Below are positions 12,288 to 55,415 of a stretch of DNA of 64,000 bases, in pieces; the first letter of the stretch is position 1, and each line of letters starts with the position of its first letter. The translations under genes and the position numbers were made by a program. Where the stretch lies: NCBI RefSeq assembly GCF_050320075.1, contig NZ_CP190018.1. The stretch is one strand, 5' to 3'. The notes beneath the pieces were generated by a model. That model saw only the letters and a program-made list of their open reading frames with translations, searched no databases and was not told the origin of the DNA. Source of the DNA: Escherichia coli (GTDB lineage Bacteria > Pseudomonadota > Gammaproteobacteria > Enterobacterales > Enterobacteriaceae).

Positions 12288-13540
12288 ATGTACTATTTAA
12301 AAAACACAAACTTTTGGATGTTCAGTTTATTCTTTTTCTTTTACTTTTTTATCATGGGAGCCTACTTCCCGTTTTTCCCGATTTGGCTACATGACATCAA
12401 CCATATCAGCAAAAGTGATACGGGTATTATTTTGCTGCTATTTCTCTGTTCTCGCTATTATTCCAACCGCTGTTTGGTCTGCTTTCTGACAAACTCGGGC
12501 TGCGCAAATACCTGCTGTGGATTATTACCGGCATGTTAGTGATGTTTGCGCCGTTCTTTATTTTTATCTTCGGGCCACTGTTACAATACAACATTTTAGT
12601 AGGATCGATTGTTGGTGGTATTTATCTTGGCTTTTGTTTTAACGCCGGTGCGCCAGCAGTAGAGGCATTTATCGAGAAAGTCAGCCGTCGCAGTAATTTC
12701 GAATTTGGTCGCGCGCGGATGTTTGGCTGTGTTGGCTGGGCGCTGTGTGCCTCGATTGTCGGCATCATGTTCACCATCAATAATCAGTTTGTTTTCTGGC
12801 TGGGTTCTGGCTGTGCACTCATCCTCGCCGTTTTGCTCTTTTTCGCCAAAACGGATGCGCCCTCTTCCGCCACGGTTGCCAATGCGGTAGGTGCCAACCA
12901 TTCGGCATTTAGCCTTAAGCTGGCGCTGGAACTGTTCAGACAGCCAAAACTGTGGTTTTTGTCACTGTATGTTATCGGCGTTTCCTGCACCTACGATGTT
13001 TTTGACCAACAGTTTGCTAATTTCTTTACTTCGTTCTTTGCCACAGGTGAACAGGGTACGCGGGTATTTGGCTACGTAACGACAATGGGCGAATTACTTA
13101 ACGCCTCGATTATGTTCTTCGCGCCGCTGATCATTAATCGCATCGGTGGGAAAAACGCCCTGCTGCTGGCTGGCACTATTATGTCTGTACGTATTATTGG
13201 CTCATCGTTCGCCACCTCAGCGCTGGAAGTGGTTATTCTGAAAACGCTGCATATGTTTGAAGTACCGTTCCTGCTGGTGGGCTGCTTTAAATATATTACC
13301 AGCCAGTTTGAAGTGCGTTTTTCAGCGACGATTTATCTGGTCTGTTTCTGCTTCTTTAAGCAACTGGCGATGATTTTTATGTCTGTACTGGCGGGCAATA
13401 TGTATGAAAGCATCGGTTTCCAGGGCGCTTATCTGGTGCTGGGTCTGGTAGCGTTGGGCTTCACCTTAATTTCCGTGTTCACGCTTAGCGGCCCCGGTCC
13501 GCTTTCTCTACTGCGTCGTCAGGTGAATGAAGTCGCTTAA
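12288..13540 (+). pseudogene. lacY: lactose permease, disrupted by an apparent -1 frameshift
   Basis: The LacY reading frame is split into ORF 12288..12539 ([10 protein letters not shown]...SDTGII then nonsense) and ORF 12533..13540 (LacY from ...[11 protein letters not shown] onward). Frame switch at the T4 run 12430..12433; locus is 1253 nt versus the expected 1254. Confidence 0.85.
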
Positions 13541-13547
13541 GCAATTA

Positions 13548-13580
13548 ATGTCGGATGCGGCGCGAGCGCCTTATCCGACC
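13548..13580. repeat. REP-like palindrome in the lacY-lacA spacer
   Basis: atgtcggatgcggcgcgagcgccttatccgacc inverted repeat. Confidence 0.6.
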
Positions 13581-13605
13581 AACATATCAGGACGGAATGA
13601 TCGCA

Positions 13606-14217
13606 ATGAACATGCCAATGACCGAAAGAATAAAAGCAGGCAAGCTATTTACCGATATGTGCGAAGGCTTACCGGAAAAAAGACTTCGTGGGAAAACGTT
13701 AATGTATGAGTTTAATCACTCGCATCCATCAGAAGTTGAAAAAAGAGAAAGCCTGCTTAAAGAAATGTTTGCCACGGTAGGGGAAAACGCCTGGATAGAA
13801 CCTCCCGTCTATTTCTCTTACGGTTCCAACATCCATATAGGCCGCAATTTTTATGCAAATTTTAATTTAACCATTGTCGATGACTACACGGTAACAATCG
13901 GTGATAACGTACTGATTGCTCCCAATGTTACTCTTTCCGTTACGGGACACCCTGTACACCATGAATTGAGAAAAAACGGTGAGATGTACTCTTTTCCGAT
14001 AACGATTGGCAATAACGTCTGGATCGGAAGTCATGTGGTTATTAATCCAGGCGTCACCATCGGGGATAATTCTGTTATTGGCGCGGGTAGTGTCGTCACA
14101 AAAGACATTCCACCAAACGTCGTGGCCGCTGGCGTTCCTTGTCGGGTTATTCGCGAAATAAACGACCGGGATAAGCAATATTATTACAAAGATTATAAAG
14201 TTGAGCCTTCAGTTTAA
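13606..14217 (+). CDS. lacA: galactoside O-acetyltransferase
   Basis: ORF 13555..14217; start placed at MNMPMTERI (203 aa); hexapeptide-repeat acyltransferase. Confidence 0.95.
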   Translation: MNMPMTERIKAGKLFTDMCEGLPEKRLRGKTLMYEFNHSHPSEVEKRESLLKEMFATVGENAWIEPPVYFSYGSNIHIGRNFYANFNLTIVDDYTVTIGDNVLIAPNVTLSVTGHPVHHELRKNGEMYSFPITIGNNVWIGSHVVINPGVTIGDNSVIGAGSVVTKDIPPNVVAAGVPCRVIREINDRDKQYYYKDYKVEPSV

Positions 14218-52245: not shown

Positions 52246-52258
52246 CCGAGGAGACGTG

Positions 52259-53731
52259 ATGTCCCGAATGGCAGAACAGCAGCTTTATATACATGGTGGT
52301 TATACCTCCGCCACCAGCGGTCGCACCTTCGAGACCATTAACCCGGCCAACGGTAACGTGCTGGCGACCGTGCAGGCCGCCGGGCGTGAGGATGTCGATC
52401 GCGCCGTGAAGAGTGCCCAACAGGGGCAAAAAATCTGGGCGGCGATGACCGCTATGGAACGCTCGCGTATTCTGCGTCGGGCCGTTGATATTCTGCGTGA
52501 ACGCAATAACGAACTCGCAAAACTGGAAACCCTCGACACCGGAAAAGCGTATTCGGAAACCTCAACCGTCGATATCGTTACCGGCGCGGACGTGCTCGAG
52601 TACTACGCCGGGCTGATCCCGTCGCTGGAAGGCAGCCAGATCCCATTGCGTGAGACGTCATTTGTCTATACCCGCCGCGAACCGCTGGGCGTAGTGGCAG
52701 GGATTGGCGCATGGAACTACCCGATCCAGATTGCCCTGTGGAAATCCGCCCCGGCGCTGGCGGCAGGCAATGCAATGATCTTCAAACCGAGCGAAGTCAC
52801 CCCGCTTACCGCGTTAAAGCTGGCTGAAATTTACAGCGAAGCGGGCCTGCCGGACGGTGTATTTAACGTGTTGCCGGGCGTGGGCGCGGAGACCGGGCAA
52901 TATCTGACCGATCATCCGGGCATTGCCAAAGTGTCATTTACCGGCGGTGTCGCCAGCGGCAAAAAAGTGATGGCTAACTCGGCAGCTTCCTCCCTGAAAG
53001 AAGTGACCATGGAACTGGGCGGTAAATCGCCGCTGATCGTTTTCGACGATGCAGATCTCGATCTCGCCGCTGATATCGCCATGATGGCGAACTTCTTCAG
53101 CTCCGGTCAGGTGTGTACCAACGGCACCCGCGTCTTCGTTCCGGCGAAATGCAAAGCCGCATTTGAACAAAAGATTCTGGCGCGCGTTGAGCGCATTCGC
53201 GCGGGCGACGTTTTCGATCCGCAAACTAACTTTGGCCCGCTGGTCAGCTTCCCGCATCGCGATAACGTGCTGCGTTACATCGCCAAAGGCAAAGAGGAAG
53301 GCGCGCGCGTACTGTGCGGCGGCGATGTACTGAAAGGCGATGGCTTCGATAACGGCGCATGGGTTGCACCGACCGTGTTCACCGATTGCCGCGACGAAAT
53401 GACCATCGTGCGCGAAGAGATCTTCGGTCCGGTGATGTCGCTTCTCACTTATGAATCTGAGGACGAAGTGATTCGCCGCGCCAATGATACCGACTACGGC
53501 CTGGCGGCGGGCATCGTGACGGCGGACCTGAACCGCGCGCATCGCGTCATTCATCAGCTGGAAGCGGGTATTTGCTGGATCAACACCTGGGGCGAATCCC
53601 CTGCTGAGATGCCCGTTGGCGGCTACAAACACTCCGGCATTGGTCGCGAGAACGGCGTGATGACGCTCCAGAGTTACACCCAGGTGAAGTCCATCCAGGT
53701 TGAGATGGCTAAATTCCAGTCCATATTCTAA
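52259..53731 (+). CDS. betB: betaine aldehyde dehydrogenase
   Basis: ORF 52256..53731; start placed at [15 protein letters not shown] (490 aa). Confidence 0.95.
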
Positions 53732-53744
53732 CCAGGAGGTTTAT

Positions 53745-55415
53745 TTGCAATTTGACTACATCATTATTGGTGCCGGCTCAGCCGGCAACGTTCTCGCTAC
53801 CCGTCTGACTGAAGATCCGAACACAACCGTGCTGCTGCTTGAAGCAGGCGGCCCGGACTATCGCTTTGACTTCCGCACCCAGATGCCCGCCGCGCTGGCA
53901 TTCCCGCTACAGGGTAAACGCTATAACTGGGCCTATGAGACGGAACCGGAACCGTTTATGAACAACCGTCGCATGGAGTGCGGACGCGGTAAGGGGCTTG
54001 GCGGGTCATCACTGATCAACGGCATGTGTTACATCCGTGGTAACGCGCTGGATCTCGATAACTGGGCGCAAGAACCCGGTCTGGAGAACTGGAGTTATCT
54101 CGACTGCCTGCCCTACTACCGCAAGGCCGAGACTCGCGATGTAGGCGAGAACGACTACCACGGTGGCGATGGCCCGGTGAGCGTCACTACCTCCAAACCC
54201 GGCGTCAATCCGCTGTTTGAAGCGATGATTGAAGCGGGCGTGCAGGCAGGCTACCCGCGCACGGACGATCTCAACGGCTATCAGCAGGAAGGTTTTGGCC
54301 CGATGGATCGCACCGTCACGCCGCATGGCCGTCGCGCCAGCACCGCGCGTGGCTATCTCGATCAGGCCAAATCGCGCCCTAACCTGACCATTCGTACTCA
54401 CGCCATGACCGATCACATCATTTTTGACGGCAAACGCGCGGTGGGCGTCGAGTGGCTGGAAGGCGACAGCACCATTCCAACCCGCGCGACAGCGAATAAA
54501 GAGGTGCTGTTATGTGCAGGTGCGATCGCCTCTCCGCAGATCCTGCAACGTTCCGGCGTGGGTAGCGCTGAACTGCTGGCGGAGTTTGATATTCCGCTGG
54601 TGCATGATTTACCCGGCGTCGGCGAAAATCTTCAGGATCACCTGGAGATGTACCTGCAATATGAGTGCAAAGAACCGGTTTCCCTCTACCCTGCCCTGCA
54701 GTGGTGGAATCAGCCGAAAATCGGTGCGGAGTGGCTGTTTGGCGGCACCGGCGTTGGTGCCAGCAACCACTTTGAAGCAGGCGGATTTATTCGCAGCCGT
54801 GAGGAATTTGCGTGGCCGAATATTCAGTACCATTTCCTGCCAGTGGCGATTAACTATAACGGCTCGAACGCAGTGAAAGAGCACGGCTTCCAGTGCCACG
54901 TCGGATCGATGCGCTCGCCAAGCCGTGGGCATGTGCGGATTAAATCCCGCGACCCGCACCAGCATCCAGCGATTCTGTTTAACTACATGTCGCACGAGCA
55001 GGACTGGCAGGAGTTCCGCGACGCAATTCGCATCACCCGCGAGATCATGCATCAACCGGCGCTGGATCAGTATCGTGGCCGCGAAATCAGCCCCGGTGTC
55101 GAATGCCAGACGGATGAGCAGCTCGATGAGTTCGTGCGTAACCACGCCGAAACCGCCTTCCACCCGTGCGGTACCTGCAAAATGGGTTATGACGAGATGG
55201 CAGTGGTTGACGGCGAAGGCCGCGTACACGGGCTGGAAGGCCTGCGCGTGGTGGATGCGTCAATTATGCCGCAGATTATCACCGGCAATTTGAACGCCAC
55301 GACTATTATGATTGGCGAGAAAATGGCGGATATGATTCGCGGGAAGGATGCGTTGCCGAGGAGCACGGCGGGATATTATGTGGCAAATGGGAGGCCGGTG
55401 AGAGCGAAAAAATGA
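53745..55415 (+). CDS. betA: choline dehydrogenase (GMC oxidoreductase), apparent TTG start
   Basis: FAD motif [18 protein letters not shown]; the codon aligned to the remembered K-12 N-terminus (MQFDY) is TTG at 53745, 5 nt after AGGAGG; ORF overlaps the betB 3' end. Confidence 0.9.

Follow-up and report, generated by a model that had tools for sequence, protein, structure and literature searches.

The stretch analysed here, referred to as the window, comprises 64,000 nucleotides of the chromosome of an Escherichia coli isolate (NCBI RefSeq assembly GCF_050320075.1, contig NZ_CP190018.1). It runs from mhp through lac, cyn, cod, prp, yah and bet to rcl, opposite in orientation to K-12, and all of its genes were identified from a listing of open reading frames (ORFs) and a comparison with 5426 complete E. 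coli genomes. Three genes within 43 kb are disrupted: the lactose permease gene lacY by a frameshift, the binding-protein gene of a sugar ATP-binding cassette (ABC) transporter by a copy of the insertion sequence (IS) IS150, and the repressor gene betI by a nonsense codon (Table 1). All three lesions, which a preliminary description of the sequence had located in these genes, were confirmed, and all three are already flagged in the RefSeq annotation. Each is of a textbook type, and together they are independent inactivating events that mark a particular lineage. Very likely they represent three unrelated, ordinary loss-of-function mutations that became fixed successively along the branch of a natural, clonal complex 38 (CC38)-related lineage and were passed on to all of its descendants, the isolate of the window included.

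An exact match to each lesion was found in only two of the complete genomes, YZLc1-3 (chicken faeces, China) and Ec-U3 (human urine, Burkina Faso). Across the 64 kb, 3 single-nucleotide polymorphisms (SNPs) separate the window from the former, and 4 SNPs and an IS1 element separate it from the latter. Two SNPs are private to the window, a synonymous change in mhpR and R44C in prpE, and the window therefore represents a third isolate. The neighbouring genes had been described as intact, and this holds: over the window span, the annotation of YZLc1-3 by the Prokaryotic Genome Annotation Pipeline (PGAP) lists the three lesion genes as pseudogenes and no others, and the private SNPs are confined to the two just mentioned. 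Literature searches for the strains YZLc1-3 and Ec-U3 found nothing.

Further loci were taken from draft (multi-contig) assemblies, metagenome scaffolds including one from ENA, Logan assemblies and a public assembly index. Among the marker proteins, LacZ with the P67L change was matched in 188 index blocks, the 88-residue BetI fragment in 191 (one of these matches stemming from the unrelated background of locus L030) and the 66-residue ORF at the IS150 junction in 228. Exact-sequence look-ups place the products of the junction and the truncations, along with three missense proteins specific to the lineage, in roughly 190–230 index blocks, including draft and metagenome assemblies. The counts of exact proteins (66–152 contigs, 78–228 blocks) were dropped as a quantitative guide to the order of events, as assemblies annotated by PGAP contribute no pseudogene products and as the L030 match to the BetI fragment is unrelated; the ordering given below relies on the individual intermediates L026 and L036 alone. 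The lesions are real and are inherited by a wild E. coli lineage known from chickens and people.

That errors of sequencing or assembly account for any of the lesions has, in our estimate, a negligible probability. The lacY lesion is a 1-bp homopolymer deletion, a characteristic type of long-read error, but the same run of four T, the same TAG codon and the same IS150 junction occur in at least three independent complete or near-complete genomes as well as in draft and metagenome assemblies. A run of five T is called in a further assembly with the same lacZ allele (L026), so that the site is callable either way; the IS150 copy has a clean target-site duplication, and the betI nonsense codon is a substitution. 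Uneven assembly quality, one of the causes put forward in the preliminary description, is excluded by identical lesions in two complete genomes from different continents and hosts, and the three have not proved to be artefacts. A laboratory lineage, another of its suggestions, is likewise excluded by carriers from chicken faeces, human urine and metagenome scaffolds, and by lesion-free relatives such as CE2050, a strain of sequence type (ST) 963 in CC38.

In lacY, the window has TTTT at positions 12430–12433 and every lesion-free relative examined has TTTTT. The N-terminal ORF (83 residues, 12288–12539) follows the wild-type sequence for about 48 residues only, beyond which the frame is broken, and the C-terminal ORF (12533–13540) encodes 335 residues. 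The Pfam model LacY_symp is covered at positions 1–49 by the former and 83–412 by the latter, and the permease is predicted to lose helix II and part of helix III. Both lacI (7948–9039) and lacZ (9162–12236, 1024 residues) are open, and LacZ carries the lineage-specific change P67L. Slippage in the homopolymer of five T probably caused the 1-bp loss. No lactose/H+ symport is predicted and LacZ would still be made, which would give slow or absent lactose fermentation together with a positive o-nitrophenyl-β-D-galactoside (ONPG) reaction. The run of four T was found in five further sequenced loci, all of which have the lineage LacZ allele and which include the ENA metagenome scaffold and draft assemblies. 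Contigs of 16 Logan assemblies end just past lacY; an IS at this point was ruled out, the ends falling in a repetitive extragenic palindrome (REP)-like repeat.

Other disruptions of the operon were encountered among relatives. Locus L026 (GCA_038717105.1) has LacZ P67L with the lacY run of five T intact (locus position ~7250, window ~12430), and within lacY the contig stops in a copy of IS1 (locus ~7639, window ~12799). Either lacY was disrupted separately here, or the frameshift reverted and the insertion came afterwards. The sister-group strain MS14384 has IS5 in lacY, and in other E. coli backgrounds frameshift products depart at or next to the same T run. L021 (GCA_052874255.1) combines the lacY frameshift with an IS1 copy in lacA (locus 8748–9517, window ~13909) that has a 9-bp duplication, GTGATAACG; the distal part of the lac operon appears to be decaying further in it.

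A lacY frameshift also defines ST1193/CC14, where it gives lactose non-fermentation (PMC11488385), and lactose non-fermenters make up ~5% of clinical E. coli (bioRxiv 10.64898/2025.12.03.691977). As in ST1193 and other CC14 strains, a small deletion causes the frameshift here, lacZ is kept, and the allele is inherited clonally in a globally spread natural lineage; the same phenotype is predicted. Those strains belong to phylogroup B2, whereas the nearest relatives of the window lineage are CC38-like members of phylogroup D. Membership of ST1193/CC14 itself was ruled out by these nearest relatives (746, SCU-109 and CE2050, the last being ST963, CC38, phylogroup D). The pattern of the lineage parallels the ST1193 frameshift, but in a different clonal complex.

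The IS150 copy is intact. Its inverted repeats are imperfect, the first 7 bases and later blocks pairing between the ends; orfA encodes 173 residues and the orfB frame is open over 283 codons. PGAP annotates the product as an intact IS150 transposase with a programmed frameshift (WP_085948682.1), for which rve domains are on record, and the element is 100% identical to a second copy in YZLc1-3. At this site the window exceeds strain 746 by 1447 bp. The 4-bp duplication shows that the element arrived by simple transposition. Length, imperfect TG...CA ends, an orfA/orfB arrangement with programmed −1 frameshift and a short target duplication all match what is known of insertional inactivation by IS150, and nothing about the copy is unusual; the duplication measures 4 bp here and, at the second copy inspected, 3 bp (AAG).

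The interrupted gene encodes a binding protein of 327 residues in strain 746 and is the first gene of a minus-strand operon that continues with the ATPase, which has the lineage-specific change V425I, and two permeases. The PGAP name 'autoinducer 2' suggests LsrB, an assignment that is not supported: the protein scores 111 bits against an NCBIfam equivalog cut-off of 384. In YZLc1-3 the canonical lsr locus, with lsrR and lsrK, is at another location. The best curated model is RhaS, with 137 bits against a cut-off of 342, and only the general Peripla_BP_4 model is passed. IS150 lies, in the opposite orientation, between the upstream region of the operon and the ATPase and permease genes, and the whole transporter is probably silent after the insertion. 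Transposition into the first gene of this accessory CUT2-type operon destroyed the binding protein and probably silenced the genes downstream. The operon is complete in only 2212 of the 5426 complete genomes (41%) and is therefore dispensable. Together with an ASCH-domain gene it forms an accessory block (31966–38510) between yahK and yahJ, where strain M7424 has a single hypothetical gene instead. In two assemblies (L037 and L039, locus 3220–4589) the orfB call at this site covers no more than 121 residues. As L037 matches the window at 100% identity throughout the 6.2 kb compared, this is a gene-calling difference and no lesion.

In betI, codon 89 is TAG in the window and CAG in relatives (Q89*). 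Intact BetI contains the domains TetR_N (residues 14–59) and TetR_C_6 (85–192), and the 88-residue product keeps TetR_N and nothing of TetR_C_6. The C-to-T transition thereby removes the ligand-binding and dimerisation domain of this TetR-type repressor. BetI represses betT and betIBA when choline is absent. Because the stop removes a repressor, the choline-to-betaine genes are expected to be derepressed rather than a metabolic function lost, and expression of betT and betIBA is predicted to become independent of choline. The earlier statement that all three lesions fall in metabolic or transport functions thus needs amendment: the affected genes are transport and regulatory genes, and loss of the regulatory one is expected to derepress its pathway. 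Some 335 untranslated bases precede betB, so that some polarity is possible and betB and betA may be lowered; no intrinsic terminator-like sites were found between the betI stop and betB.

The order of the genes, with betT divergent from betI-betB-betA, and the domains of BetI in intact relatives agree with the established bet system, and removal of the C-terminal domain is in line with known loss-of-function mutants of BetI. The difference is that here a natural amber allele is fixed in a lineage, and that the same substitution makes a −10 hexamer on the opposite strand. The change at 51922 turns minus-strand TGTAAT into a perfect TATAAT (51923–51918, within the region 51918–51947), with a −35-like TCGAAA 18 nt away (10/12 matches) and pointing toward betT; this is a consensus match only. 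An identical 88-residue fragment with the same TAG occurs in locus L030 (Logan SRR35395840; locus 2501–2767, window 51658–51924), in a background with 126 differences from the window over ~4970 aligned bases (2.5%), the nearest differing sites lying 211 bp upstream and 13 bp downstream. Most simply, the nonsense mutation probably arose there a second time, independently. Other truncated forms of BetI recur in E. coli and Shigella.

Three further observations concern the bet region. A metagenome scaffold of the lineage (L031, 4217–4364; window 53374–53521) has 18 SNPs within 150 bp at the 3' end of betB, as either a recombination patch or an assembly chimera. An apparently split betB in L032 was discarded, being a run of N in the scaffold. 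Ec-U3 alone carries IS1A in the pdeL-betT intergenic region (L008 14272–14969; window ~49067), and it has a private missense change in pdeL, F211C.

Table 1. Features at the three lesions, in window coordinates.
Feature	Position	Strand	Details
lacY pseudogene	12288–13540	+	−1 frameshift, T5 to T4 at 12430–12433; PGAP 'frameshifted' in YZLc1-3 and Ec-U3
Downstream ABC-transporter genes	31966–35367	-	ATPase 33883–35367, permeases 32919–33890 and 31966–32922; structurally intact
Binding-protein gene, 3' fragment	35416–36213	-	Peripla_BP_4 model positions 35–258
Target-site duplication CCTG, left copy	36210–36213		single CCTG at the empty site in 746
IS150 (IS3 family), 1443 bp	36214–37656	+	orfA 36261–36782, orfB 36779–37630; ends TGTACTG ... 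CAGTACA
Target-site duplication CCTG, right copy	37657–37660		single CCTG at the empty site in 746
Binding-protein gene, 5' fragment (start codon, signal-peptide end)	37657–37849	-	66-residue ORF 37649–37849 runs into IS150
betT (choline transporter), intact	49496–51529	-	divergently transcribed from betI
betI pseudogene	51658–52245	+	CAG to TAG at codon 89 (51922–51924); PGAP 'internal stop'
betB and betA, intact	52259–55415	+	betB 52259–53731, betA 53745–55415; downstream of the TAG in the betIBA operon

The closest lesion-free genomes in the region are 746 (dog, Scotland), SCU-109 (human, USA) and CE2050 (gull, Australia). The nearest lesion-free relatives thus belong to, or adjoin, CC38, and the phylogenetic placement that the preliminary description had called for is a CC38-related lineage with neighbours in phylogroup D. 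With M7424 as the outgroup, nine SNPs over ~50 kb were assigned to the branch of the lineage (five missense, one nonsense and three synonymous), in addition to the 1-bp deletion in lacY and the IS150 insertion. They are lacZ P67L, two synonymous changes in prpE, ABC ATPase V425I, E64G in the ASCH protein, yahJ G141C, yahI P302L, a synonymous change in yahG, and betI Q89*. Those at 34095 and 38320 are unpolarised, M7424 being without that segment. G:C to A:T transitions make up seven of the nine, and the spacing is even. The 6:3 ratio of missense or nonsense to synonymous changes is near that of unselected mutation and looks like near-neutral accumulation. In mutation-accumulation experiments with E. 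coli, indels arise at about a tenth of the rate of substitutions and IS insertions at a few tenths. At those rates, and without any purging, nine substitutions would come with about one indel and at least one IS insertion, which is about what is seen.

Genomes with a subset of the changes give the order of events. Locus L036 (GCA_001912055.1) has IS150 at the same site together with the ancestral bases at 38320, 39770 and 40246 (locus 3001–6201, window 36214–40849), and the IS150 insertion therefore came first. On the far side of IS150, this genome has a chemoreceptor gene in place of the remainder of the binding-protein gene; it is an early-branching relative with a later IS150-associated rearrangement. 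The P67L change with an intact run of five T in L026 places the lacY frameshift late, unless it was reverted there. These sequences show that the three lesions arose at different times, and their mechanisms are likewise separate. In prpE, three synonymous SNPs within 10 bp (21001–21010) set 746, SCU-109 and CE2050 apart from the window lineage and the outgroup, probably as one multi-base event or a tiny recombination patch.

Arrival of all three lesions together, on one block recombined from a donor lineage, is extremely improbable. The genomes with partial sets of changes speak against it, since IS150 occurs without three of the branch SNPs in L036 and the LacZ allele occurs without the frameshift in L026. 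Two observations favour it. Near pflB, strain 315 (L028, NZ_CM132958.1) shows no difference from YZLc1-3 over 25 kb, but in the part of the focal region covered, from pdeL/betT onward, it has a different allele set from betT through ykgE and an intact betI; CC38-type genomes are therefore mosaic around this region, the focal allele set (protein accessions WP_001595xxx) being unlike that of strain 315. This contrast also led us to set strain 315 aside as the closest relative, as it is uninformative on the lesions. Lineage-specific amino-acid changes are, moreover, somewhat denser here (5 per 50 kb) than in the sampled stretches of YZLc1-3 (10 per 400 kb). The mosaic allele set is, however, common to the lesion-free strains 746, SCU-109 and CE2050, and the branch SNPs are evenly spaced and mostly G:C to A:T, as for new mutations.

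Three lesions in so short a stretch had been described as more than expected for an unremarkable core region. The background was estimated from the PGAP annotation of eight 50-kb stretches of YZLc1-3 (400 kb, 8% of one genome), and the matched lesion-free control was strain 746, with one 50-kb chunk and the focal region. The eight stretches contain 1, 1, 0, 4, 4, 1, 9 and 0 pseudogene rows, of which 1, 1, 0, 1, 3, 1, 5 and 0 are non-mobile (12 in 400 kb); strain 746 has no pseudogene in its sampled chunk and none in the focal region. Within the limits of an 8% sample and a small matched control, most of the 12 non-mobile pseudogenes are remnants or lie inside islands. The background of 1.29 non-mobile pseudogenes per 43 kb gives a probability of 0.14 for three or more, and two of the eight stretches reached at least three. 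The claim of an excess thus stands nominally under narrower definitions (P 0.01–0.02, as detailed below), but not against the non-mobile density of the same genome; all P values are uncorrected for the scanning of many windows. The distance to the nearest non-lineage genomes is ~11 SNPs per 42.6 kb here, compared with 7 over the same length near glc and 4 over 25 kb near pflB, and with similar distances elsewhere the region is not unusually diverged. The cluster is a mild local excess at most. A glcD frameshift in YZLc1-3 was considered as a fourth lineage-level lesion and rejected: it is not in Ec-U3 and is common to the unrelated strain Ch1. It consists of a 2-bp loss in a (CG)n run (L014 28890 versus L027), a hypermutable repeat with recurrent frameshifts.

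Genome-wide reductive evolution, which the preliminary description had raised, would make the window a typical sample of a lineage with many pseudogenes and an IS expansion, as in Shigella. It is not supported, and we regard it as very unlikely. The losses resemble those in Shigella and Salmonella Typhi in that transport and catabolic genes are hit by frameshifts, nonsense codons and IS insertions, but the sampled parts of the genome (8%) gave no sign of the IS expansion or of a raised genome-wide pseudogene load. The three lineage-level lesions in 43 kb speak for such a process, as do truncations of yiaA/B and a fimbrial usher that are associated with IS1 elsewhere in YZLc1-3, and a number of annotated features per kb slightly above that of relatives (0.974 versus 0.954–0.969). 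A query containing IS150 is, however, found at 4, 3 and 5 places in YZLc1-3, Ec-U3 and 746, so that the carriers, with ~3–4 places per genome, are like the lesion-free strain, and few IS1 copies and no large IS expansion were seen in the 400 kb of YZLc1-3 sampled. In the pseudogene sample, three of the eight chunks have no pseudogene or only a short ancient remnant, the top count falls in a mobile island, and the density extrapolates to ~260 PGAP pseudogene rows per genome, which is within the normal range of E. coli. Genome sizes of 5.08–5.21 Mb are not reduced.

Several observations weigh against a purely neutral origin. Counting only clean point lesions in core genes, for which the sample provides glcD and yjhQ, the two seen here have a probability of 0.02, and counting only recent-looking events the three have one of ~0.01, although one or two such windows per genome are still predicted. 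The census behind these values covers 8% of one genome, and its control a single chunk and the focal region. Beyond the number of lesions, lacY was hit independently in L026, with the T run intact, and in MS14384, and the betI TAG recurs in the divergent background of L030; these hits hint at selection or mutational hotspots over pure drift. They fit either hotspots with relaxed selection, or positive selection.

Positive selection would mean that the loss of lacY and the loss of BetI were favoured in an extraintestinal or avian-associated lineage, the latter because choline uptake and the synthesis of betaine as an osmoprotectant would become constitutive, the clustering reflecting selected targets that happen to adjoin. 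We consider this unlikely. The independent disruptions just named bring the count for lacY to three among close relatives (the frameshift, IS1 and IS5), and they are joined by the frameshift products of other backgrounds at or near the same T run, the betI amber codon of L030, the truncated BetI forms of E. coli and Shigella, a urine isolate among the carriers (Ec-U3) and a lineage as widespread as ~190 index blocks. Recurrence at a homopolymer is, however, expected from mutation pressure alone, and the 6:3 ratio and the G:C to A:T spectrum fit neutral accumulation. The IS1 in lacA of L021 looks like decay of an already dead operon, and no link connects the loss of the ABC transporter to any advantage. 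A preprint reports that lacY aids the growth of uropathogenic E. coli inside bladder cells, which argues against a benefit of its loss there. It is quite unlikely, too, that lacY and betI are recurrent targets of selection in extraintestinal E. coli at large, with the betI change possibly doubling as a consensus −10 element toward betT.

We thus favour three ordinary mutations fixed successively on one branch, and infer from the spectrum and ratio of the accompanying SNPs that selection for the losses need not be invoked. The stretch is rich in dispensable, conditionally used genes under weak purifying selection, which would account for the closeness of the lesions within 43 kb with no local process needed.

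If selection on lacY and betI did operate, the cost of the lactose permease and osmoprotection would be traits under selection outside the gut; the evidence does not require it. The run of four T in lacY, the IS150 junction and the betI TAG are simple markers for a globally distributed CC38-related lineage, of modest practical value. Isolates that carry them may appear lactose-negative or delayed on MacConkey agar and could mislead routine identification, as with ST1193.

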